DNA of 64,000 bases from Promethearchaeota archaeon (GCA_016839705.1 JAEOTR010000046.1:41770-105769); one strand, 5' to 3'; counted from the stretch's first letter, positions 18,825 to 57,504 are shown. Notes: generated by a model from the letters alone, not told the origin. Numbers and translations: made by a program.

Positions 18825-19355
18825 ATGCCAGAGAATAAAGTTAGAAAATATTTCTCACTAATAGAAGCATGGGCTTGGTGTGATATTTGTGAAGATATGA
18901 TAGCATTAAGATTAGATAAAGATGAGATTATTAGTGGATTAAAGATGGGCATTTATACGAAAGAGCACAAACATTATAATCTTTCCCCTGATCTGGAAGA
19001 TCCCGACGATGCTTCCGGACAAGAGCATACAATTTATATCTATATAAATGATAATTATGATATCACTGGAGTAAAATCATTTTTTGGGGAATCACCTACT
19101 ACAGAAGAAATCGGTGCTGAATCTTTAGAAGCAGGTGATGAAGTAAGAATTCCTGTTATTGTAAAAGATATATCGCCAATGGCCGTACAACTGGGAATGC
19201 TAACAAAAGAACAGTTCAAAGTACTTAAAATTTGTGATGGAATGAACACAATTGAACAAGTAGCCACAATTGCTCAAAGAAGCGTAGAAGATCTCGAAAA
19301 AATGATGGATCAACTCCGAAAAAAGGGATTAGTTCGAGTTATTAAAAGGACTTAA
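18825..19355 (+). CDS. Hypothetical protein: CxxC/His N-terminal domain plus C-terminal winged helix
   Basis: CDIC...HKH...H; VLKICDGMNTIEQVA...LRKKGLV. Confidence 0.6.
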   Translation: MPENKVRKYFSLIEAWAWCDICEDMIALRLDKDEIISGLKMGIYTKEHKHYNLSPDLEDPDDASGQEHTIYIYINDNYDITGVKSFFGESPTTEEIGAESLEAGDEVRIPVIVKDISPMAVQLGMLTKEQFKVLKICDGMNTIEQVATIAQRSVEDLEKMMDQLRKKGLVRVIKRT

Positions 19356-19394: not shown

Positions 19395-20531
19395 CTATCT
19401 AGTAATCATTAAATCTTCCAGTTCTTGTTTCATCTTCTTGATTTTTGGTTTTTCAAAATGTTTTCTTGCGGGGTTCAAGATATCAATGATTTTGCTTGAA
19501 ACGCTATTTTTTAAGTCAAGTGGGTGGATATTTTTGTTAAGATAAGCATCTTCCAATTCTTGATAAGTAAAAAATTCTAAGTCTCCCCCAAATTTTGTTG
19601 GTCTTTCGATTAGGAAATGAGAGTTATTTTCTCGAAAAATAATAAATTTCACCCAATCTAGAATTGGATTAAATAATACATTTCCCTCTGGGCAGAATGC
19701 AGAATTGATTTTTTCTTTAATTTCTTTGGGACTATCATGAATGAATACGGCAGAATCAGGTAATGATTTACTCATTTTCATTTGTGACCATAGTTCTTTT
19801 AATTGATCATCATCTTCTATAGGCCAAATTGGTGGTTTTTGCAAGCCTAAGATCAAATGATTGTGAATACAAATTGGCTTAATTTTCATACCCTTTGAAT
19901 TAAACAGATTATTCTTTTTCATTTTTAAAGCAACCTCTCGAGCAATCACATGAGCTTTCCTTTGATCATAACCAGCATGTGCGAAGTTTACGTTTTGGAT
20001 AAAAATATCTGCTACTTGCATGGCAGGATACAATAATTTTGCAAAATCAATATTTTCACCTTGTTTTTTTCCCATGATAGTAATGCTTCTTTGCATTCTG
20101 CTTAAAGTAGTGTTTTTACACACTTCGATAACAGTTTCCCAGTATTCATCATTATTATGATACAATTCTGATCCAAGAGAAAATTTTACTTTGTTAGAAT
20201 CAGCCCCAACACAAGACAAACCTGCTTTAAGCCCTTCTTTAAAATATCCAACAGCCATCTCTCTTATTTTTTCCATATCTCCCCCTAATTTATCATTAAT
20301 CCAACTGTGCCAATCTGCAAGAAATATGGAACAGTTAATTCCCGCATCAATAAAATCTTTGATTTTTCCCATACAAATAAGTCCTATACCTAAGTGTATT
20401 TTACCTGAGATTTCGAAGCCTATGTAGTGATTTAGGGGAACTCCGGTTTCTAGAAGATGGAGTAAATCACTTTCAGTTAATATTTCCTCAGTTCCTTGTT
20501 TTATTAAGCTAATTTTATCTTGGATATCCAT
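19395..20531 (-). CDS. tyrS: Tyrosyl-tRNA synthetase (archaeal/eukaryotic type)
   Basis: YIGFEISGKIHLG, ADWH, YPAMQVAD, GYDQRKAH, KMSKS, AFCP, HPLDLK. Confidence 0.96.
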   Translation of the reverse strand: MDIQDKISLIKQGTEEILTESDLLHLLETGVPLNHYIGFEISGKIHLGIGLICMGKIKDFIDAGINCSIFLADWHSWINDKLGGDMEKIREMAVGYFKEGLKAGLSCVGADSNKVKFSLGSELYHNNDEYWETVIEVCKNTTLSRMQRSITIMGKKQGENIDFAKLLYPAMQVADIFIQNVNFAHAGYDQRKAHVIAREVALKMKKNNLFNSKGMKIKPICIHNHLILGLQKPPIWPIEDDDQLKELWSQMKMSKSLPDSAVFIHDSPKEIKEKINSAFCPEGNVLFNPILDWVKFIIFRENNSHFLIERPTKFGGDLEFFTYQELEDAYLNKNIHPLDLKNSVSSKIIDILNPARKHFEKPKIKKMKQELEDLMITR

Positions 20532-20596
20532 GTGAAAATAAAATAAAATAAGGAATAATAATTTTGTTGAATATGATTTAAGGTAAATATTTCTGG
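20390..20596. repeat. Direct repeat copy 1: tyrS codons 1-47 plus upstream region
   Basis: Aligns with 27279-27486 at an offset of about 6889 bp. Confidence 0.9.
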
Positions 20597-20740
20597 TTAA
20601 TCAGAACCTTCAAATCACCAGCAATAATGAATATAATAAGGAAAGTAGTTTTATTACTGAAAGTAGTAAATATCAAAACTGAAGAATTTGAATGACACTT
20701 TCGCATTGATTTAAATATGATATACACTATTTTCTTTACA

Positions 20741-20759
20741 TAGATGTAAATTACATCTA
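20741..20759. promoter_or_regulatory. Perfect palindrome, candidate regulator site
   Basis: TAGATGTAA-A-TTACATCTA, about 40 bp upstream of the large surface-protein gene. Confidence 0.4.
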
Positions 20760-20796
20760 AAAGAATATCCTTTAAAACAATACAAGGGATTTTGGG

Positions 20797-23700
20797 TTGA
20801 TGGAAAATAGATACAAAATTCGAGTTTTATATATCTTAATTATAGTATGCTCAATTCCAATTATTTCTTGGGTGAATTGTAACAATCAAAATAATGATTT
20901 TGATAATGATAAGAATAAATATATCCATGATTTAGATTCACAAATTAAACTTTCAAATAATCCTCCAAATAATAATTACTTTAAATATTATAAAGAAATA
21001 ACTATAAATCATTTAAAAGTCTCTGATGACCTTACTAATTTTTCCCTGTTAGTTTCCATATTTGATGAAGATTTACATGATGATGTTCAATATGACGGGG
21101 ACGATATTGCATTTGCAATAGATAATGAGTGGTTAGACCATGAAATAGAATTATTTCATCAAAGTTATAGCTCCACTCACGCGCAATTAGTCGCCTGGGT
21201 ACGAATACCTTCACTTTCAAGTACTATTGATACTAAAATTTATATGTATTATGGAAACTCGACAATGGGGTCGCAACAAAATCCTAGTGGGGTTTGGAGT
21301 TCAAATTATAAAGGAGTATGGCACTTAAATACAACTTTATTAGATTCAACTTCAAATGATAATGATGGTACAAACTATGAGGCAGATGATGGTTCAGCAT
21401 ATATAGCTAATGGTAGGGATTATGATGGGAGTAATGATTATTCAAATATGGGGTCAGATAGCAGTATAGATAACATATTTAATGGGGGTGCGACTATTTC
21501 GGCTTGGATAAAACCAGAGGGATGGGGTGGTGGTCAATATGGTCGAGTTTTAGCCAAATCATCTGTTACAGCTGGTACAGATGGATGGGTTATGTGTGTT
21601 GACGGAGAAGCAGATTCGGTTGATCATCATTTACTTTTTTATCGAGGTTTCGATAAGAATCCTTATAGAGGTCTTTGGTATACTCCTGCTGATTCTATAA
21701 GTCTTAATCAGTGGCAATATGTAGTTGTAACTTATGACGATGGCTCAGATACTAATGTTCCTTCTATCTATATAAATGCCGGAGCGTCTCGCTCCCTTAC
21801 ACCAGAGCCCTCACCTAGCGGAGACGCTGTTGATGATTCTTCTCAAGAATTATATATTGGTAATTATGGAGGAGTACTTAAGGATCGGGCTTTTGATGGT
21901 ATAATTGACGAAGTTCGTATATCGTCGGGGATTAAGTCATCCGATTGGATTCAAACAGAATATAACAATCAATATGATCCTAATTCATTTTATACGGTTA
22001 GTTCCTCATTCGAAATTGATAAAGTTCCCCCGGATATTACGATAAACTTACCAACGAATAATACTTTATTTGGAAGTATAGCACCAAATTTCATCGTTGA
22101 AATAGACGATAATAATAGTATAAGTTCAAGGTGGTATCGTTTACTTAATGGGACAGCAACCACGATTAATACAACTTTTACGTCAAATGGAAGTATTAAC
22201 CAAACACGATGGAATGAGATGGGAAATGGAACAATAACTATTCAATTTTTTGCTAACGATTCTTCAGGAAATATAGGTTTTTCGGAAGTTGTCGTTCGAA
22301 AGGATATAATTTTTCCGTCAGTTGTAATTATTGCTCCAAATAATTTCGATCTTTTTGGATCTACAGCTCCTGACTATAATGTAGAAATTTGGGACCATAA
22401 CGGTGTAGATTATAGGTGGTATACGTTAAATAATGGTCTAGAGACATATTTCAATGATAATGGTACAATATCGCAATCCGCTTGGAGTTTATGTGGTAAC
22501 GGTACGGTTTCAATTAAATTTTATGCGAATGACTCGTTGGGTAATGAAGGTTTTTCAGAAGTGATCGTTCGAAAAGAGATTGAATCCCCAACAATTACAA
22601 TTAAATCTCCCCATGATTTGGATCTTTTTGGAAGTACTGCTCCCGCCTTTAACGTAGAAATTTGGGACAGTAATGGTGTGGATACTATGTGGTATACTTT
22701 AAACAATGGTATAGATATTCCCTTTACTGAAAACGGGACAATATCACCATCAGCTTGGAGTTTATGTGGTAATGGTACTGTTTCAATTAAATTTTATGCG
22801 AATAACACATTGGGTAATACAGATTTTTCAGAAGTAATTGTTAGGAAAGATATGATAGATCCTGTAATTACAATTAACACACCCGATCCTGATGACTTAT
22901 TTGGAAGTACTGCTCCTTCATTTACTGTTATAATCACTGACCCAAACGGAATTGATACTAGGTGGTATACCATTGATGGGGGAATTACAAATACTACTTT
23001 TACATCAAACGGGATAATAAATCAAAGTTTATGGGAATCTCGAGTAAATGGTACTGTAACAATTGGTTTTTATGCAAATGATTCCTTAGGCAATGTTGGC
23101 TATGAAGAAGTTATTGTTCGAAAAGATATTGAACCCCCTTCTATACAAATTAATTCCCCAAATCCTTACGAATTATTTGGAGTAAGTGCTCCTAGTTTTA
23201 ACGTCGAAATAATTGATAGTAGTGGAATAAATACAAGGTGGTATACGATTGATGGGGGTGTAACAAACATAACATTCACTTCAAATGATACTATAAATCA
23301 AGGGTTATGGAGTTTTGAAGAAAACGGAACGGTTACAATCAAATTTTATGCAACAGACTCATTAGGAAATGAAGGATCTTCAAATGTTACCGTTCGAAAA
23401 GATATGGATCCTCCTTTGATACAAATTAATTCTCCACATGATGACGAACTATTTAATGAAATTGCTCCTAACTTTAATGTAGAAATTGGGGACAGTAATG
23501 GTGTGGATACTATGTGGTATACATTAAATAACGGTATAGATATTCCCTTCACTGGAAATGGTACAATATCACAATCAGATTGGTTTATATGTGATTATGG
23601 TAGTATTTCAATTAAATTCTATGCGAATGACTCCTTGGGTAATGAAGATTTTTCAGAAGTGATCGTTCAAAAAGAGCTTAGTCCCCCTTCCATAATAATT

Positions 23701-25485
23701 AATAATCCTATCTCAGATCAACTATTTGGGGTAATTGCGCCCATTTATAATGTTGAAATAACTGATTTTAATGGTATAGATACAATGTGGTACTCTCTTG
23801 ATGGCGGGTTAACAAATATAATTTTTACTACTAATAGCTCAATAAATCAAACAATTTGGGATACTTTTGGAGATGGGAATATTACCATAAGATTTTATGC
23901 AAATAATAGTATAGGAATAATCGGATTTTCAGAAGTGTCAATAGTAAAAGATATTTATGCTCCAATGATTACGATTAATAGCCCAAATAATAATTCATAT
24001 TGTAATAAAGCACCTATCATTAATATAGATGCGTATGATATTAATTTCGACAAATTATGGTGTAAAATTGGGAGTAGTAATATTTCACTTATAAATAACG
24101 CAGATTTTGAATTAAACAGCTCCATTTGGGATAGTTTACCTGAAGGATCTTTTCAAATCTTTATTTATGCGAATGATACGATTGGTCATTTAAATGATAC
24201 TATCGTATTGATGCTCTGTAAAGATACGATTAGCCCAAATGCTCCAATACTCTTAAATTTTCCAACAGGAGAAGTTAGCTTGCCGATTATTTTTGATTGG
24301 GAGGATGGGACTGATGCATCGGGGATTGACCATTATCGATTAATTATAGACAATGAAGAAGATCCTTTTGCAAGTCCCGGTTTTATTTTTGAGATAAATA
24401 TTACCAATATTGGCTCGGAAAGTAGTTATTATGAATTATTTGAATATCTAATTCCTAGTAACTATTACTTTTTTATATATCAAATTGATGAGGCTGGAAA
24501 TCAAGGAAGTGCTGCCTATGATACTTTTACTATAAAAAGCACATCTGCACCAGTAACACAATTTCCATGGTGGATAATTTTAGTAATAGCAGTTCCTTTA
24601 GGATTAGCATTAGTTATAGTTGGTCTGAAAAAATCAAAAAAGAAAGAAATACAGGTAGTGATAATAGACAAGGAATTAGATAAACTTAAGGAAAATAGAG
24701 TTATTTTAGACGCAGAAGCTAAATCTGCTGAAAAATCATATAATTACCTAAAAGCTGCAGATAATTATGAAGATTGTGCCAAAATATCGTATCAGTTATA
24801 CAATGAAGGAGACAAAATTGAGGAATATAAATATAAAGAGTATAAGCGTTTAGAAATGGAAGCAAGATCCAACGCTGAATCCATTCCTTTAAGAAATGAT
24901 TGCATTAACAATTTATTAACTAGATTTTTTGATGAGAATGGGATAAAGTATTATTCAAATCCTCAAATCTATCCTGAAAATCAAGGCATGATAAATGGGT
25001 TAATCCTAAATGATAACAATTTTTTACAAAATAGATTCACCAATCTTGATGATAGCCCAGACCTGGCTGAGGAACTACATACCGATCCTGCCAACTTAGA
25101 AAATGTTAATGCCATACAACTCTTATATGTTATAGATTTATCCGTTGACGCGATAATTGATTATTGCCAAAAGTTTCAGAATCCAAACATGATTCTTTAT
25201 ATTGTAGGTATTGAATGGCCTGCCTATAATTATGAGGAGAAAATTAATCTTCCTAAAGATAAAACCATAAAATACCCAGAAAATATCAAAATATTTGATT
25301 TAAACTTATTTTTCAGAATATTTCTTATAGATGATCAATATAAAGCGAAACTCAATAATATCATTGATTTAAAATCTGATATAAAGGCTTTAGAGGAATT
25401 ATTTGAAACCTCTAAAATTCATTTACATAACTCCCAAGAATTGAAAGATGAATTAAAGCAAAAAGGATGGTTTTTCTTGATTTAA
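20797..25485 (+). CDS. Large single-pass surface protein: DUF2341, LamG, 8 Ig-like repeats, FN3-like domain, TM helix, ~285-aa cytoplasmic tail
   Basis: N-terminal hydrophobic signal; DGDDIAF...AWVRIP...IYMYYGN; LamG FDGIIDEVRIS; ~90-aa repeats; TM WWIILVIAVPLGLALVIVGL followed by KKSKKK. Confidence 0.8.
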   Translation: MMENRYKIRVLYILIIVCSIPIISWVNCNNQNNDFDNDKNKYIHDLDSQIKLSNNPPNNNYFKYYKEITINHLKVSDDLTNFSLLVSIFDEDLHDDVQYDGDDIAFAIDNEWLDHEIELFHQSYSSTHAQLVAWVRIPSLSSTIDTKIYMYYGNSTMGSQQNPSGVWSSNYKGVWHLNTTLLDSTSNDNDGTNYEADDGSAYIANGRDYDGSNDYSNMGSDSSIDNIFNGGATISAWIKPEGWGGGQYGRVLAKSSVTAGTDGWVMCVDGEADSVDHHLLFYRGFDKNPYRGLWYTPADSISLNQWQYVVVTYDDGSDTNVPSIYINAGASRSLTPEPSPSGDAVDDSSQELYIGNYGGVLKDRAFDGIIDEVRISSGIKSSDWIQTEYNNQYDPNSFYTVSSSFEIDKVPPDITINLPTNNTLFGSIAPNFIVEIDDNNSISSRWYRLLNGTATTINTTFTSNGSINQTRWNEMGNGTITIQFFANDSSGNIGFSEVVVRKDIIFPSVVIIAPNNFDLFGSTAPDYNVEIWDHNGVDYRWYTLNNGLETYFNDNGTISQSAWSLCGNGTVSIKFYANDSLGNEGFSEVIVRKEIESPTITIKSPHDLDLFGSTAPAFNVEIWDSNGVDTMWYTLNNGIDIPFTENGTISPSAWSLCGNGTVSIKFYANNTLGNTDFSEVIVRKDMIDPVITINTPDPDDLFGSTAPSFTVIITDPNGIDTRWYTIDGGITNTTFTSNGIINQSLWESRVNGTVTIGFYANDSLGNVGYEEVIVRKDIEPPSIQINSPNPYELFGVSAPSFNVEIIDSSGINTRWYTIDGGVTNITFTSNDTINQGLWSFEENGTVTIKFYATDSLGNEGSSNVTVRKDMDPPLIQINSPHDDELFNEIAPNFNVEIGDSNGVDTMWYTLNNGIDIPFTGNGTISQSDWFICDYGSISIKFYANDSLGNEDFSEVIVQKELSPPSIIINNPISDQLFGVIAPIYNVEITDFNGIDTMWYSLDGGLTNIIFTTNSSINQTIWDTFGDGNITIRFYANNSIGIIGFSEVSIVKDIYAPMITINSPNNNSYCNKAPIINIDAYDINFDKLWCKIGSSNISLINNADFELNSSIWDSLPEGSFQIFIYANDTIGHLNDTIVLMLCKDTISPNAPILLNFPTGEVSLPIIFDWEDGTDASGIDHYRLIIDNEEDPFASPGFIFEINITNIGSESSYYELFEYLIPSNYYFFIYQIDEAGNQGSAAYDTFTIKSTSAPVTQFPWWIILVIAVPLGLALVIVGLKKSKKKEIQVVIIDKELDKLKENRVILDAEAKSAEKSYNYLKAADNYEDCAKISYQLYNEGDKIEEYKYKEYKRLEMEARSNAESIPLRNDCINNLLTRFFDENGIKYYSNPQIYPENQGMINGLILNDNNFLQNRFTNLDDSPDLAEELHTDPANLENVNAIQLLYVIDLSVDAIIDYCQKFQNPNMILYIVGIEWPAYNYEEKINLPKDKTIKYPENIKIFDLNLFFRIFLIDDQYKAKLNNIIDLKSDIKALEELFETSKIHLHNSQELKDELKQKGWFFLI
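22021..24225 (+). repeat. Eight tandem ~90-aa Ig-like intragenic repeats
   Basis: Consensus PxIxINSP...LFG..AP.FNVEI.D.NG...WY...NGTI...FYAND.LGN...EV.VRKD. Repeats 3 and 6 are still near-identical in DNA (about 22650-22740 vs 23475-23570). Confidence 0.85.
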
Positions 25486-25512
25486 TCTTTTCTTTTGATA
25501 TACTAAAATATA

Positions 25513-27069
25513 TTAAATAAGATTTTTAATAGCTGTTAACATTGCTTTTAATTGATTATGGATTTCTGTTTGGTATTCTTTTCCAATCTTGAAGAAAATA
25601 ATGGAACCCATTTTTCTCTCTAATTCCTCATCTATCTGAAATTCGTGTATTAAACTTGACCAGTCATTTTTTTCTGATACAAGGATTCCTATCACCAAGA
25701 CTTTACCTTTTTCTAAAAATTCTAATATTTTACTAACAATATATGTCCATTTAGGATTAATTGAATCTCTATCTCGTGCATCAAAGATACAAAAAACTCC
25801 GTCAGAATCACTTACTTCCTTTAAGAAGTAGATGCAATTTTTTAATATTAAGCCATTTGAATATTGATAATATTTTTCATCCTCTTCATCCTTAAAATTC
25901 AACAGTTGCTTATTATCATTTGCTTCAATCATTATTTGTAAAGCAGGATTCCAATGAGGGTTTTCAGTTAGGAATGTTAAAATTAAATTGTCTTTAAATT
26001 GCATAATATCTCCAATTTCATTCAACAATTCTTGATTTCTTTGTAGTTGGGCTAATTCTTTACATTTGGTAATGAAATTATATGAAATTAATCTAAATGC
26101 ATCCTCAACGTTCTCTCCTGTTAATGCACTAGTTTCAAGGTACAAAATATTTCTATTTGTGGATCCAGTTAAATTTTGCGACATAATAACAGCATCTTGA
26201 TTGTTAATAACACGTTTTTCAACTAAATCCTTTTTATTACCAATAATCATGACGGGCAAATCTTTAATGTTAATAAATTCATTTAACTCATTATACCAAT
26301 TTTTAATATTTTCAAATGATTTTTTACTTGTTAGATCAAAAACAATAAATCCTGCCTGAGCACCGTTATAATAAGTTTTACGATATCTCCTAAAATATTC
26401 TTGTGCGCCTATATCCCAGAGAGCTACATTAATTATATTCCCAAAAGATTCAAACTCATGTGATATAATATTAAGACCAATTGTGGCTCGATAATCTGCG
26501 AGAAATCTATTTTCAGAAAATCTACGAATGATAGAGGTCTTTCCAACATTATGATCTCCAGTAATTATAAATTTAAATTTGTAAATCCCACTAGAATCGA
26601 CGTCTAACTGATAGAGTTGGTTTTTCATTCTTTTTGCTTGTTTCGCTTCATACTTAAAATTTGGAACAGATAATTGCAGATGGTCTCCTTCTTTCACATT
26701 AATAATTTGAGCCGTCTTTTCTGCAAGAAAATAACCATAAGGAGAATATTGCTCAATTGATGCCATAGTATTTAAGACAATGCTAAGCATTATTTTTTCA
26801 TCAACAGTTATGAAAATCAATCTATTGTTTTCTGTTTCAAATGAACATGAGCCGAATTTTTTGAAATCAAATTCAAAGCGTATTCGATCCAATATGGGAT
26901 TGACAATGGTAGTTAATACTGAAACTATCTCCATATCAATATCTTCTCTTTTTTCTCCAGCAATAATCAACCCCTCTTCATCAGATACGATTATAGCTTC
27001 AGTTTCTTTATTTACTTCTAAAAAATTATTAAATAGTTCCTTGAAAAGCGCATTTTTACTTAATGACAA
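25513..27069 (-). CDS. Roadblock domain, Rab-like GTPase and degenerate second GTPase-like domain fusion
   Basis: EAIIVSDEEGLIIA (roadblock); GDHNVGKT, WDIGAQ, NKKD, TSAL; C-terminal DSDGVFCIFD...VLVIG without a P-loop. Confidence 0.8.
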   Translation of the reverse strand: MSLSKNALFKELFNNFLEVNKETEAIIVSDEEGLIIAGEKREDIDMEIVSVLTTIVNPILDRIRFEFDFKKFGSCSFETENNRLIFITVDEKIMLSIVLNTMASIEQYSPYGYFLAEKTAQIINVKEGDHLQLSVPNFKYEAKQAKRMKNQLYQLDVDSSGIYKFKFIITGDHNVGKTSIIRRFSENRFLADYRATIGLNIISHEFESFGNIINVALWDIGAQEYFRRYRKTYYNGAQAGFIVFDLTSKKSFENIKNWYNELNEFINIKDLPVMIIGNKKDLVEKRVINNQDAVIMSQNLTGSTNRNILYLETSALTGENVEDAFRLISYNFITKCKELAQLQRNQELLNEIGDIMQFKDNLILTFLTENPHWNPALQIMIEANDNKQLLNFKDEEDEKYYQYSNGLILKNCIYFLKEVSDSDGVFCIFDARDRDSINPKWTYIVSKILEFLEKGKVLVIGILVSEKNDWSSLIHEFQIDEELERKMGSIIFFKIGKEYQTEIHNQLKAMLTAIKNLI

Positions 27070-27243
27070 AGGTGTTGCCTCTTGACTCTTCTAAAATTAA
27101 AACTTCTTAATGTATTATTGTGGCTCAATTTATCCCTTGAATATATAATGAATTAATAATTATTTAAATATAATTGAGTTTAGCTTCTTTAAGTAAAAGC
27201 AAATATTTCTTCAAAAATGAAAAGCATGAATTAGGAATGCTTA

Positions 27244-27420
27244 TTACCTCGAGGATGAGTCAACTTCTTCGAAGTTTTCTAGATGTATTTTACCTGAGAT
27301 TTCAAAACCTATGTAATGATTTAGGGGAACTCTAGTTTTTAGAAAATGGATCCAATCACCTTCAGTTAATATTTCCTCAGTTCCTTGTTTTATTAAGCTA
27401 ATTTTATCTTGGATATCCAT
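27244..27420 (-). pseudogene. Truncated tyrS 5' fragment (58-aa ORF, first 47 codons tyrS-derived)
   Basis: MDIQDKISLIKQGTEEILTEGDWIHFLKTRVPLNHYIGFEISGKIHL then unrelated ENFEEVDSSSR-stop. Confidence 0.88.
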
Positions 27421-27486
27421 GCGAAAATATAATAAAAGAAGGAATAATAATCTTGTTGAAAAATGTTTTAAGGTGGGAACATCTGG
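27279..27486. repeat. Direct repeat copy 2: tyrS 5' end plus upstream region
   Basis: 13 mismatches over the 141 coding nt by manual count; similarity continues about 55-65 bp upstream of the ATG. Confidence 0.9.
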
Positions 27487-27565
27487 AGAATTATTAAATC
27501 CTACTCAAAAATTATTTCCTTGCCTTTCTTCATTTCTAAATGTAGTGCTTTAATATTCATGTCTG

Positions 27566-27627
27566 AATCACTAAAAATAAAAAGTTTATATATATTAATC
27601 ACTAAAAATAAAAAGATTATATATATT
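27566..27627. repeat. 31-bp tandem duplication containing a BRE/TATA-like element
   Basis: AATCACTAAAAATAAAAAG(T/A)TTATATATATT twice, one mismatch. Confidence 0.8.
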
Positions 27628-28017
27628 ATTCACGGATATTCTGTAAAATAATTAAAATTGTAAGACGTAATTTACTTTTATTGTGGAAATAATATTATTA
27701 TCAATAAAAAATTGTACAATTAGAAATTTTAAGTCTAATAGTTCAAAATCCTCTTTTCTCTTCTTTTCATATATTTTTGTGTTTAAGAATAGTTGAAGAT
27801 GCCCCCTTGGATGATTCATATTTAGTAATTTCACACCTATTAGATATTCCTATAAAAAAGTAAAGAAACTAATATTATACTTCGTTTCAGTTATCTCTGT
27901 CATTTGATTTGCTATTTGTTTTTGTATAAATCTGGTATAAATAATATCTCATTATAAAACCAATTTTCGACTTCTTTTATTTTACTTGTTGTTATATCTA
28001 CTGTTTTTTTTTAATGA

Positions 28018-28665
28018 TTAATTTTGAATTGATTCCCTTCCTTTTCCTACACCAAGGTGTAGGGCTTTAATGTTTGAGTCTACATCTCTTAACCATTCCT
28101 TGATAACTTCTTCATAATGCTCAATTTCAATAAAGGGTAATTTCCCGGTCATTATAGCAAAACCTAGCAAAATAAGATTAACCTGTTGGTTAGAATCAAA
28201 ACTACTTAAAGATATTTCTGTGGCATTCATAAAAAACACCTGATCAGAATAAACATTTAAAATTCCCTTTATTTTTTCTAAGGGAGGATATGTTTCCATA
28301 TCAGCGGTAACTAATATATTTGGAATATCACGTTCATTTATTACAAAACTAGTCTTTATTGATGCAAAAATTCCTTGGCGTAAAGCTTCAACCGGTTCCA
28401 TGCATATATAAAGATCAGCGTCTCCATAGCAAATCAAAGATGATTGCAAATTATATCTAGGATTCTCAGTTAATTTTTTCTGATATCGAGTGTGGCTAAT
28501 TATTGCCCCTTCGCGTTGTGCTAGGCCGTGATGTTCTGCTCCAAAGCATGCCTCGACTCCTGCTTTCTGTGCAGCAAATTCAATTAATCTCTTAAGTGTA
28601 ATAACACCTTGGCCTGCAGTTCCCGCTATAACAATATTGATTATATCGGTTTCCTCAAATTTCAC
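28018..28665 (-). CDS. iorB: Indolepyruvate:ferredoxin oxidoreductase beta subunit
   Basis: AGTAGQG, EHHGLAQREGAI, EPVEALR. Confidence 0.9.
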   Translation of the reverse strand: MKFEETDIINIVIAGTAGQGVITLKRLIEFAAQKAGVEACFGAEHHGLAQREGAIISHTRYQKKLTENPRYNLQSSLICYGDADLYICMEPVEALRQGIFASIKTSFVINERDIPNILVTADMETYPPLEKIKGILNVYSDQVFFMNATEISLSSFDSNQQVNLILLGFAIMTGKLPFIEIEHYEEVIKEWLRDVDSNIKALHLGVGKGRESIQN

Positions 28666-30804: not shown

Positions 30805-32697
30805 ATGAAAAAATCCTATATTTTAATGACTTTTTCAATATTAGTTTCTTTCTCAGCAATAGTTACCTCAAATTTTCCAATGCCTTATAAAAATAATATT
30901 AATTTCAACCATACTTTTGATACAAACGAAATAGGAATATCAGAAGAACCACCTCTTATTATCGGAGTAAGATCTTATTCTAATGAAATTGATCCTCACT
31001 ACTGTTGGGATCCCTATTCATCTAATATTATCGAACAAGCTTGTGAGGGGCTTTTTACTCATAATTACTCAGATGCATCCTCTAATATAATACCTAACCT
31101 TGCATCTGATTATGGAACTTGGTCTACTGATGGTTTAAATTATACTGTCTCAGTTCGTCAAAATATTACTTTCCATGACGGTACACCTTTTAATGCATCA
31201 GCGATTCAATGGAATTATAATAGATTATCTTATTTTATGAATATTACAGGTTTAGTACCCTTTTATGAACCAACATCACAATTTACGGTGGTTTACTTAT
31301 GGTCAGATAATACTCCTATCATTAATAGAACTGAGATAATTGATCCTTTCACCATCAAATATGTGTTGAATAAACCATATGCGGCACTTGAAGGTTTATT
31401 ATGCTTTAGTGGCTCTTTTATGTTATCTCCTACATCTACGGATCCAGTTAATTTAATTGAACTTGACACTGGTGGTTTGGTTGGTACCGGTCCCTATGTT
31501 TATGAGAGTTATATTGTGGATACAGAAGTGACTTTCCAAGCTTATGACAATTATTGGAAAGCGCAACCTGAAATAAATTCATTAATCTTTGCCATTTACC
31601 ATGATCCCTTAGATTTAAATAATGCTCTTTTAAATGGAGATATTGATGTGCTAATGAATCCTTTACCGTCTTTTTTAGATGTTTTGAATGCGTCTCCCAA
31701 TATAAACCTTATAGATCAAGAAGAAAGAAGTTGGACATCATATTACGTCGGAATGAATAATAATCATATTAACCAAACTTTCAGAGAAGCAATCTCATAT
31801 GCAATTGACTATGATTATGTAATCAATACCTTAAAAAATGGTTCAGCAGAAAGACTAAAATCTCCCATTCCAAAAGGAATTCTATATTCTAATTATTCCT
31901 TAAATGTTCCTTATCTAAATCTTTCTCATGCTAGACAAGTAATGAAATCAATGGGATACGGAGTAGGTTTTACAACAGAAATAGAGTGGGAATCAGCAAC
32001 TTTTGCAACTTTTAATTATACATATTTTAATTATAGTTCAGTCTTAAAGTCAATCGCTCCATTATTAATGAACAACCTATCTAAAATTGGAATTCAGATA
32101 GAGGATGCAGCTCTTGATAGTTGGTTTGAATATCTTATGATGTTAGTAAATGAACCACCATGGGACCGAGATATGCTACAATTATTTATGGTTGGATGGG
32201 TTCCAGATTTTAATGATCCCAGTCAACTATTCAATGTGTTATTCAACAACCGGACAAGTTCAAATCTCTTTAATTTTGCTCAATATAATGGTGGATATGG
32301 TGGGTTTGAACCATATGATAAGGATAATGATGTACAACTCCTCATGGAATCCGCTCTTGAAATAACCGATAAAGATGAGAGAAAACAAATTTATATCAAG
32401 ATTCAGAAACTAATGATAGAAAGAGATTTTCCTGTTGCATGGATGTTTACCCCAAAAGTATATATGGCATATAATAATAAATTAGACGGTCTTCAAGAAC
32501 ACACTTTTTGTAATGTCGATGAGGATGATAAAGCTTCTTTAAAAGGAGATATTACATATTTAAAATGGAAGCCTGATCTCATAAGCGGAGGCCCTGGGCC
32601 ATCAATACCGGGTTACTCCCCCATGATATTCAGTATATTTTTCTTAATATATCTCTCAATAATCTTGAGAAAGAATAAAAAAACTAAAAATAGCTAA
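30805..32697 (+). CDS. ABC transporter family-5 (Opp/Dpp) substrate-binding protein with C-terminal IPGY-TM-basic anchor
   Basis: FHDGTPFNA, GTGPY, REAISYAID, GWVPDF; tail IPGY, hydrophobic helix, RKNKK. Confidence 0.88.
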   Translation: MKKSYILMTFSILVSFSAIVTSNFPMPYKNNINFNHTFDTNEIGISEEPPLIIGVRSYSNEIDPHYCWDPYSSNIIEQACEGLFTHNYSDASSNIIPNLASDYGTWSTDGLNYTVSVRQNITFHDGTPFNASAIQWNYNRLSYFMNITGLVPFYEPTSQFTVVYLWSDNTPIINRTEIIDPFTIKYVLNKPYAALEGLLCFSGSFMLSPTSTDPVNLIELDTGGLVGTGPYVYESYIVDTEVTFQAYDNYWKAQPEINSLIFAIYHDPLDLNNALLNGDIDVLMNPLPSFLDVLNASPNINLIDQEERSWTSYYVGMNNNHINQTFREAISYAIDYDYVINTLKNGSAERLKSPIPKGILYSNYSLNVPYLNLSHARQVMKSMGYGVGFTTEIEWESATFATFNYTYFNYSSVLKSIAPLLMNNLSKIGIQIEDAALDSWFEYLMMLVNEPPWDRDMLQLFMVGWVPDFNDPSQLFNVLFNNRTSSNLFNFAQYNGGYGGFEPYDKDNDVQLLMESALEITDKDERKQIYIKIQKLMIERDFPVAWMFTPKVYMAYNNKLDGLQEHTFCNVDEDDKASLKGDITYLKWKPDLISGGPGPSIPGYSPMIFSIFFLIYLSIILRKNKKTKNS

Positions 32698-56358: not shown

Positions 56359-57504
56359 TTAGAAGCATCTGTGTATTACTTGAGGACCCATTTCCTTGTA
56401 CTCCCTTCTCGTGACCCACATGCGGTGAAATGTTTTTAGAGATGAGAGAATTGAGCCACCAATCCATACGGAATACATACGCTCTGGAGGTGCGATAATC
56501 TTTACATCAACGGATTCTGGAATCTGTTCTTTAATTTCCTTGGTTAAGCGTTCCTTAATACCAGGGAACATTGTAGAACCACCAGAAAGAACTATATTGC
56601 TATAAAGGTCTCTTCGAAGGTCAACATCGCATTCTGAAATAGCTCCAACGATAACATCATCTAAAGGCTCCAACTCTTTACCGATTACTGAAGGATTGAA
56701 GAAACATTCAGGTGCTAAAAATCTTTCAACACCAACATTAATAGTTTCACCATCAGGAAGCATATAGCTCTTTTCCATTCCAGCGACTTTCTTTGATAGC
56801 ATCATCTCTTTTTCTGGATCAATAGCTACATAACAGAGCTTTTCCTTAATATCTCTAACTATTTCTTTCTCTGCTGATGTGGTAAAAGAGTATCCTTTTT
56901 GCCTGAGAAGCCTCTGTAAATATGTTGTAATATCTCGCCCAGCAAGATCAATTCTTTGGATTGCATGACTTAAAGCAAATCCTTCGAAGATTGGTACGAC
57001 GTGAGAAACACCATCACCAATATCTATAACACACCCGGTAGTACGGCCAGAAGCGTATAAAGATAAAACTGCTTGCATGGCTACATAAAGAGCAGGTGTA
57101 TTAAATGTTTCAAACATGATTTCAGCCATTTTTTCTCGGTTTGGCCGTGGATTTAAAGGTGCTTCAGTTAAGAGTACTGGATGTTCGCTCGGATCAATAC
57201 GGAGGTCTGTGTAAAAGGTGTAATGCCAGATTTTCTCCATAGCGGTCCAATCTTCTATGATACCATGTTCAACAGGGAACATGAGTTTTAATACACCTTT
57301 AAGCTGCATGGCCTCTTCTCCGATATAGTATTCCCGTGTATAATGCTCGACATCAGTCATTATAGACTCATATTTGGGATAACCAATTAGAGTTGGGAAA
57401 ACGGAACGTGGTTGATCTTCTCCAGCAAAACCATTTTTAGAGATTCCCGTACCATTATCCACCACAAGGGCTTTGGCGTTTAAAAAGCTTTCTTCTTCTG
57501 CCAT
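56359..57504 (-). CDS. Lokiactin (Asgard actin)
   Basis: [63 protein letters not shown]. Confidence 0.97.

Follow-up and report, generated by a model that had tools for sequence, protein, structure and literature searches.

Free-standing LAGLIDADG homing endonucleases lie behind duplicated gene ends in fungal mitochondria. Gene ends are also duplicated by the dusA islands, which insert into the 5′ end of a translation-related gene, provide it with a new 5′ end and leave the original one as the outer boundary of an island carrying mixed cargo. An integrase is always encoded by these islands, which have a common att consensus of 21 bp and are excised in circular form (PMC4482086). The att sites of archaea can be longer than 100 bp and can be located within coding genes (PMC8371274). 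In bacteria, homology-facilitated illegitimate recombination, in which homology anchors the incoming DNA at one end while the joint at the opposite end is illegitimate, has been described (PMC3240628). It has been invoked for the displaced 3′ ends, mostly of toxin genes, in the Vibrio T6SS/Rhs arrays, where orphan gene ends are left past the new cargo and repeated events occur at one hotspot; the mechanism is rare in the laboratory (PMC5361080). Finally, variable GTPase-bearing regions are already known in Asgard archaea. Those of Atabeyarchaeia are presence/absence regions rich in MGE genes, and their eukaryotic-signature GTPases are Arf-like (PMC11529989).

The locus considered here shares some traits with each of these systems. 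As in the bacterial cases, the island has a homologous anchor at one end and a joint that looks illegitimate at the other, orphan gene ends stand past the cargo and a hotspot has been used repeatedly; here, however, the host is an archaeon, and the event concerns the 5′ end of an aminoacyl-tRNA synthetase gene, tyrS, with a mirror event at a 3′ end. As in the dusA islands, the insert supplies the new 5′ end of the gene and the original 5′ end is found at the outer boundary, but here an integrase and a recurrent breakpoint are lacking, the repeat is a homologous one of 190 bp and the cargo is native. Duplicated gene ends round inserted DNA recall the fungal mitochondrial case, and two relatives hold a LAGLIDADG ORF at the slot; in contrast, the island itself has no nuclease gene. 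A eukaryotic-signature GTPase in a presence/absence region is reminiscent of Atabeyarchaeia, but here only two genes are involved, none of them an MGE gene, and the GTPase is a probable Ras-family roadblock fusion. The tyrS scar is a real and fairly ordinary recombination scar, of a known kind. The features of the locus are given below, with positions counted in the window, that is, the whole stretch of 64,000 nucleotides of Promethearchaeota archaeon DNA that was analysed. Judging by its actin and roadblock GTPases, the source organism is probably Lokiarchaeia-like.

18825–19355, plus strand: conserved wHTH-domain gene (weak PF16221 match; 33/36 genus genomes), fixed low-coordinate flank of the variable site.
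19395–20531, minus strand: intact tyrS of the second TyrRS type ('B'), 378 aa (PF00579).
20391–20584, minus strand: proximal repeat copy, replacement tyrS 5′ end (codons 1–47) with about 53 bp of upstream DNA; the upstream match to the relative G077 stops at about 20585.
20472–20532, minus strand: core of 61 nt identical in both copies (partner 27361–27421; permutation P = 0.008).
20585–20699, no strand: spacer (about 115 bp) that separates the cargo from the DNA upstream of the replacement tyrS start; no match in the relatives searched, none notable in its own genome.
20700–20796, plus strand: conserved, promoter-like upstream region of the surface-protein gene; the match stops at about 20700 in 8 relatives.
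20797–25485, plus strand: first cargo gene, single-pass surface protein of 1562 aa (DUF2341, LamG, some 7 repeats of 273 nt that are Ig/PKD-like, a TM segment and a cytoplasmic tail).
25513–27069, minus strand: second cargo gene, 518-aa protein with a Ras-family GTPase domain (PF00071, E = 2e-42) and a putative N-terminal roadblock-like part.
27070–27279, minus strand: upstream region of the GTPase gene, fused directly to tyrS codon 47; source of 11 junk codons and a stop.
27280–27500, minus strand: decaying tyrS 5′ end (codons 1–47, ATG at 27420), the displaced original, with the native iorB-tyrS spacer.
About 27501–27565, minus strand: second stub of 65 nt, displaced iorB 3′ end (NIKALHL...KEIIFE, then stop).
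27566–28017, no strand: inserted non-coding DNA (about 450 bp) that sets the iorB stub apart from the end of the present iorB; 27597–27733 matches intergenic DNA at unrelated loci of two relatives (G019 and G034).
28018–28665, minus strand: iorB-like POR subunit gene (PF01558; synteny) with its present, replacement 3′ end.

Along the minus strand follow, in turn, iorA, iorB, the non-coding DNA of about 450 bp, the iorB 3′ stub, the native spacer, tyrS codons 1–47, the GTPase upstream region and gene, the convergent surface-protein gene, the 115-bp (approximate) spacer and the intact tyrS, preceded by 53 bp of its upstream DNA. The two copies of the direct repeat align without a gap between 20390–20571 and 27279–27460 (91% identity, spacing of 6889 nt). 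With one gap, the repeat reaches 191 nt and extends 53 bp upstream of the ATG (E = 1e-69); the initial annotation had seen the repetition of codons 1–47 6.9 kb away but had credited it with about 60 bp of upstream DNA, where the homology covers about 50 bp. A third copy is absent from the 3.36-Mb assembly. Recounting gave the same figures as those first put forward for the coding part: tyrS codons 1–20 are identical, and the 141 nt of codons 1–47 differ at 13 positions. Six of these differences are synonymous, and the 5 that fall in codons 35–47 are all among the six. The identical core exceeds the length expected by chance and may mark either the crossover tract or a later conversion.

The two ends of the island differ. 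On one side, the 190-nt copies run on into the intact tyrS and provide a homologous anchor. On the other side, the joint is non-homologous and abrupt: at 27279 the tyrS homology stops and homology to the GTPase upstream region starts. The distal copy breaks there after codon 47, between KIHL and G, inside the HIGH-equivalent motif HLGI (HLGT in orthologues), and 11 sense codons lead to a TAA, as had been noted. The region of the distal stub is 86% identical to G077 over 27279–27514, and about 70% identical to G018 and G067 over 27276–27557. Since the ancestral upstream context, made of the iorB tail and the native spacer, is kept at the distal copy, against about 53 bp at the proximal one, the distal copy is the displaced original and the proximal copy the replacement, in agreement with the earlier view of a displaced fragment at the far boundary.

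The iorB 3′ stub had been missed by the first reading. Aligned with the iorB ends of three relatives (G018, G067 and G027), it matches at 38/48 nt, as compared with 32/48 for the present iorB end of the source genome, and this match is better than those of 2000 shuffles (P < 0.0005). The distance from KEII to the ATG is 89 nt at the stub versus 91 in G018. Because of this match and of this spacing, 27280–27565 is the ancestral iorB-tyrS junction, stranded between two inserts, and it preserves both directions of gene-end replacement. Sequence comparison shows this structure, and the two insertions may have come in either order. A simple tandem duplication of the iorB-tyrS junction was rejected because it predicts the opposite stub order to the one seen, iorB 3′ then tyrS 5′. 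No protein match was found for the insert of about 450 bp, and its derivation from a LAGLIDADG remnant was ruled out on comparison.

Such an arrangement might also be produced by the assembly, either as a chimera of two strains or as an empty chromosome and a circle, joined via the 61-nt identical core. Logan unitigs indeed break at this core in all runs, the phasing across it rests on the original assembly, and the MAG, 93% complete, has 6.8% contamination. However, both junctions lie within zero-difference unitigs at flank depth, and two of the three flanks are recovered in independent samples: the break at 27279 is bridged in X1, the probable source sample, in which one unitig spans 24576–27390, the junction between tyrS upstream DNA and cargo is bridged in three samples (X1, X2 and X3), and the stub-to-iorB side in two (X1 and X3). 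A joint from X2 (20326–27293; side 30, depth 3x) and the small-share runs X5–X7 were assigned to other organisms and left out. In addition, the stub carries decay changes, such as G30R at an invariant codon, unlike what another strain's working allele would show. An artefact of this kind is therefore extremely unlikely. The initial annotation had called for reads across both junctions; the unitigs span these junctions and break at the core.

The gene affected is an accessory second type of TyrRS rather than the core tyrS of the genus. Its closest PDB entry is 2cyc (E = 5e-142). It shows 72–90% identity to its counterparts in about 12 genus genomes but only about 40% to the usual type, from which it forms a separate clade. 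The distribution is patchy (about 12/54 genus genomes), and most carriers retain the usual tyrS too. Only type B is seen in the source assembly, from which, at 93% completeness, about 14 kb around the usual tyrS are also missing.

In the genus, the slot between the wHTH gene and a 180-aa Rab-like gene behaves as a nested hotspot. These two genes are adjacent in many genomes, and the neighbour of the wHTH gene varies among relatives, being Rab180, iorB, tyrS or cargo. iorAB have been added to the slot in G013, G024 and G027; tyrS directly follows iorB, with a 70-nt gap, in G018, G067 and L113; other relatives hold a methyltransferase, a LAGLIDADG ORF or further cargo. The comparison of iorB-tyrS synteny that had been proposed as a check has thus revealed both an empty site and variable cargo, and the empty junctions bear out the idea that tyrS took up, as an insertion, the DNA now lying between the repeats. 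Other genomes carry scars at the same site: an independent, decayed iorB 3′ stub stands past tyrS in G002, and of tyrS itself G025 keeps just the 3′ part. No second tyrS-B 5′ stub was found in 54 genus genomes (one per species) and the metagenome loci examined, nor was a donor with the GTPase gene, the surface-protein gene and tyrS adjacent found in these genomes and 80 metagenome loci. The exact junction sequence has no match in the genome contigs searched. Among metagenome relatives of tyrS-B, the best is 81% identical and none is conspecific; the 11 closest loci, once annotated, showed no second island.

Two relatives suggest that a nuclease may have acted at this slot. G004 has an intact 490-aa double-motif LAGLIDADG ORF between iorB and tyrS-B, and G002, which also has the iorB 3′ stub, contains a remnant of it (74% identity) in the same slot. 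Another scar of the source genome, on contig C88, encloses a LAGLIDADG ORF as well. It may be imagined that a free-standing LAGLIDADG enzyme cut near the end of iorB or the start of tyrS, that repair by copying of a donor displaced the gene end, and that the nuclease was later lost. However, the Pfam match spans 35 residues only, which makes the ORF a candidate nuclease with a putative target; neither a homologue nor a remnant was found in the island or in the rest of the source genome, and a flanking direct repeat encloses the ORF at only 1/14 other homologue loci. We consider homing-endonuclease repair quite unlikely.

The cargo had been described as eukaryote-like signalling genes. This holds for the GTPase, whereas the other gene encodes a LamG/DUF2341 surface protein, with 9 paralogues in the source genome. 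GTPase orthologues (73–86% identity) occur in 12 relatives, always elsewhere than at this slot. Eleven relatives have the GTPase gene paired convergently with the surface-protein gene, each time at another locus and never adjoining tyrS, and a paralogous pair is present on contig C86 of the source genome. A foreign origin was discarded, as the GC and GC3 of the cargo equal those of the flanks and a paralogous module exists elsewhere in the genome; the cargo is a native module. The match to a contig of one relative (G010:C429) starts exactly at 27279, and in other relatives the homology upstream of the cargo ends at variable positions (27171–27236). The module therefore has no fixed terminus, since its homology ends vary among relatives (27171–27279). 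With only 81% identity, G010:C429 is the nearest module sequence at the joint, and this limits the view of any microhomology.

These observations bear on the view, raised by the initial annotation, of an integrative element. In such a model, a site-specific element resembling the dusA islands would have inserted at the HIGH-motif codons of tyrS, its integrase being lost or acting in trans. The geometry is the same as that of the dusA islands (PMC4482086 Fig. 3), the break falls within a conserved motif, and two tyrosine recombinases (PF00589), the only ones of the source genome, are encoded on contigs C1 and C67. In the same genome, no serine resolvase was found. On the other hand, profile searches confirmed that an integrase is absent in or near the island, a result with which homology-mediated insertion, also envisaged at first, agrees; the relatives examined show none at this site either. 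About 12 tyrS-B genes of the genus and 80 metagenome loci yielded no second island at codon 47, and at its other loci the module is free of tyrS DNA and its ends vary. No att-like fixed end was found, and no excised form was seen in the unitigs, which break at the identical core.

Moreover, the mirror stub of iorB and scars elsewhere in the genome strike unrelated genes. Scanning of the intergenic DNA of the source genome for gene relics within 30 kb of the parent gene yielded 15 local relics, all on the same strand as the parent. Five were dropped (C3, two on C53, C81 and C97) because they were paralogues with frameshifts, a pseudogene or merely a tandem copy; the two ambiguous ones, on C11 and C55, were kept out of the curated set. 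The 8 curated relics bracket 1–2 cargo genes with the polarity expected for gene-end displacement, and none of these cargo genes is either of the two tyrosine recombinases. The island is not a member of the dusA type, having neither an integrase nor a reused att site; it is devoid of its own machinery and is not a self-mobile element. A site-specific element at tyrS is, in our opinion, very unlikely.

The explanation that we favour, to which we would give a probability of about 0.55, is a homology-anchored illegitimate insertion by host recombination, having occurred twice, at tyrS and at iorB, in a hotspot of gene turnover. Several lines of evidence support it: the empty site and the variable cargo at the slot; the cargo-side homology that starts exactly at the break, without a fixed element end; the iorB 3′ stub of G002 and the half tyrS of G025 at the same site; the genome-wide scars of the same polarity without recombinase cargo; and the 61-nt core, which fits a crossover tract. 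In the ancestor, iorB would have been directly followed by tyrS-B, as is observed in relatives. Incoming DNA from close kin would have carried the GTPase and surface-protein module beside its own tyrS-B start, and would have recombined by homology inside tyrS, its other end being joined illegitimately after resident codon 47. In this way tyrS would have stayed whole, and the old start would have been left behind to decay, as the polarised changes described below indicate. A separate event of mirror geometry would have replaced the 3′ end of iorB and brought in some 450 bp, leaving the native junction stranded. The island could be lost, and tyrS restored, if RadA recombined the two repeats with each other. 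Against this reading stand the search for a donor, negative in the genomes and loci given above, and the rarity of the mechanism in the laboratory. No DprA above cut-off was found in the source genome, a result that bears on how the DNA might have entered. Homology-facilitated illegitimate recombination is not known to have been demonstrated in archaea.

The substitutions between the two copies were polarised with 11 orthologues as outgroups. The working, proximal copy has 5–6 synonymous derived changes and 1 nonsynonymous, while in the distal stub only 1 change is synonymous and 5 are nonsynonymous, L23W and G30R among them, the latter at an invariant codon. This split between the copies (Fisher P = 0.03–0.08) reflects purifying selection on one copy and decay of the other. 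The synonymous bias had been taken to suggest two once-functional alleles. It lends this no support, because 6/13 synonymous changes compare with 4.5 expected under neutral decay with the observed mutation spectrum (P = 0.25), and because most changes in the stub are nonsynonymous; the counts being too few, the pattern neither proves nor excludes two alleles. The tree of both 5′ copies, recommended at first as a check, does not separate the proximal copy, the distal copy and G077 on 141 nt.

Identity between the two copies (91%) exceeds that of either to the nearest species (88%), and both differ from G077 at 10 common positions. This resemblance, the neutral appearance of the changes in the stub and the native character of the cargo, with its paralogous pair on C86, would all suit a duplication linked to repair. 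The module would have changed place inside the genome, and about 190 bp of its target would have been copied during template switching or the repair of a break; the two copies would have been identical at the outset, with decay of the stub coming later. However, the working copy has 5–6 synonymous changes over about 33 sites against 6–7 changes over 141 in the stub, which places the stub, in these small numbers, below neutral decay over an equal time. Furthermore, the iorB stub is nearer to other species than to the iorB end of its own genome, which suggests a replacement from outside. We hold a duplication of this kind to be unlikely.

If insertion by host recombination is correct, the locus offers a clear, dissected example of an Asgard lineage gaining and moving genes without mobile-element machinery, where a GTPase and surface-receptor module and a second TyrRS type have been shuffled at one hotspot. 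It would also imply that att-like gene-end repeats in MAGs need not signal integrative elements. One may further wonder whether recurring, integrase-free displacement of gene ends, perhaps started by free-standing LAGLIDADG enzymes, is a main route by which accessory modules pass between loci and strains in the genus. This broader proposal is doubtful. Were it true, the modules moved would include pairs of eukaryotic-signature GTPases and surface receptors as well as the alternative TyrRS, and the iorB-tyrS slot would record several rounds.

A separate observation concerns iorB itself, which contains a candidate BHB mRNA intron, 31 nt long and located at codon 45, in 7 relatives. This candidate BHB-type intron may outweigh the tyrS scar in importance.

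Interruptions of another kind, candidate introns, are found in the iorB genes of seven relatives.

after the FGSE codons, equivalent to about window 28520: insert site in iorB, placed by orthologue comparison

At this single shared position, the iorB genes of seven relatives (loci L093, L094, L040, L089, L092, L091 and L113) are interrupted by an insert of 30-31 nt, which is missing from the gene of the present genome (G000) and from nine other orthologues. The insert would fold into a hairpin whose closing helix has 4 bp and a 3-nt bulge on either side. All four pairs form in five of the seven sequences, three and two of the four in the remaining two, and the fully paired helices differ in their bases (AGCG/CGTT, AGTG/CATT and AGTG/CACT). 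Cutting both bulges between their second and third bases would leave a frame free of stops in 7/7 cases. From these sequence features, the insert is a candidate bulge-helix-bulge intron of an mRNA. An archaeal precedent is cbf5 (PMC2738675); no other surfaced in the literature searched.

Further genes and gene stubs were noticed as well.

window 30805-32697: gene for a solute-binding protein of family 5, flanked by iorA and the Rab-like gene
L040:4645-6117 (genome G004): free-standing double-motif LAGLIDADG ORF of 490 aa, between iorB and tyrS-B, the gene of the second TyrRS type
L032:7469-7813 (genome G002): remnant of a LAGLIDADG ORF, 74% identical to that of G004

The solute-binding protein gene, present at this slot in G000 and G027 and missing from G018, G002, G004, G067 and G077, is another insert without an integrase. 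Beyond the window, contigs C34, C56, C60, C73, C88 and C9 of G000 carry more displaced gene-end stubs flanking one or two genes; the cargo enclosed by the C88 scar has a LAGLIDADG domain. Distant homologues of the LAGLIDADG ORF of G004 occur in 25 of the 54 genomes of the genus.

The second TyrRS type is also housed at the usual tyrS locus, which includes a ppdK-like gene (L033, L035, L036, L034 and L096). Its gene precedes the usual tyrS in tandem in G009 and G028, precedes a truncated usual tyrS in G006, and replaces the usual tyrS in G032 and G063. This looks like gene displacement seen at several stages.

Some smaller details of the window may be added. A 31-nt tandem repeat (two copies, 87% identical; 27559-27620) lies at the outer edge of the displaced iorB 3' end. 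In the cargo GTPase (25513-27069), the G3 motif reads WDIGAQE, alanine replacing the usual glycine of DxxG. Finally, the actin-like gene at 56359-57504 shares 96% identity with a homologue from a lineage for which the mutL identity is only 54%.
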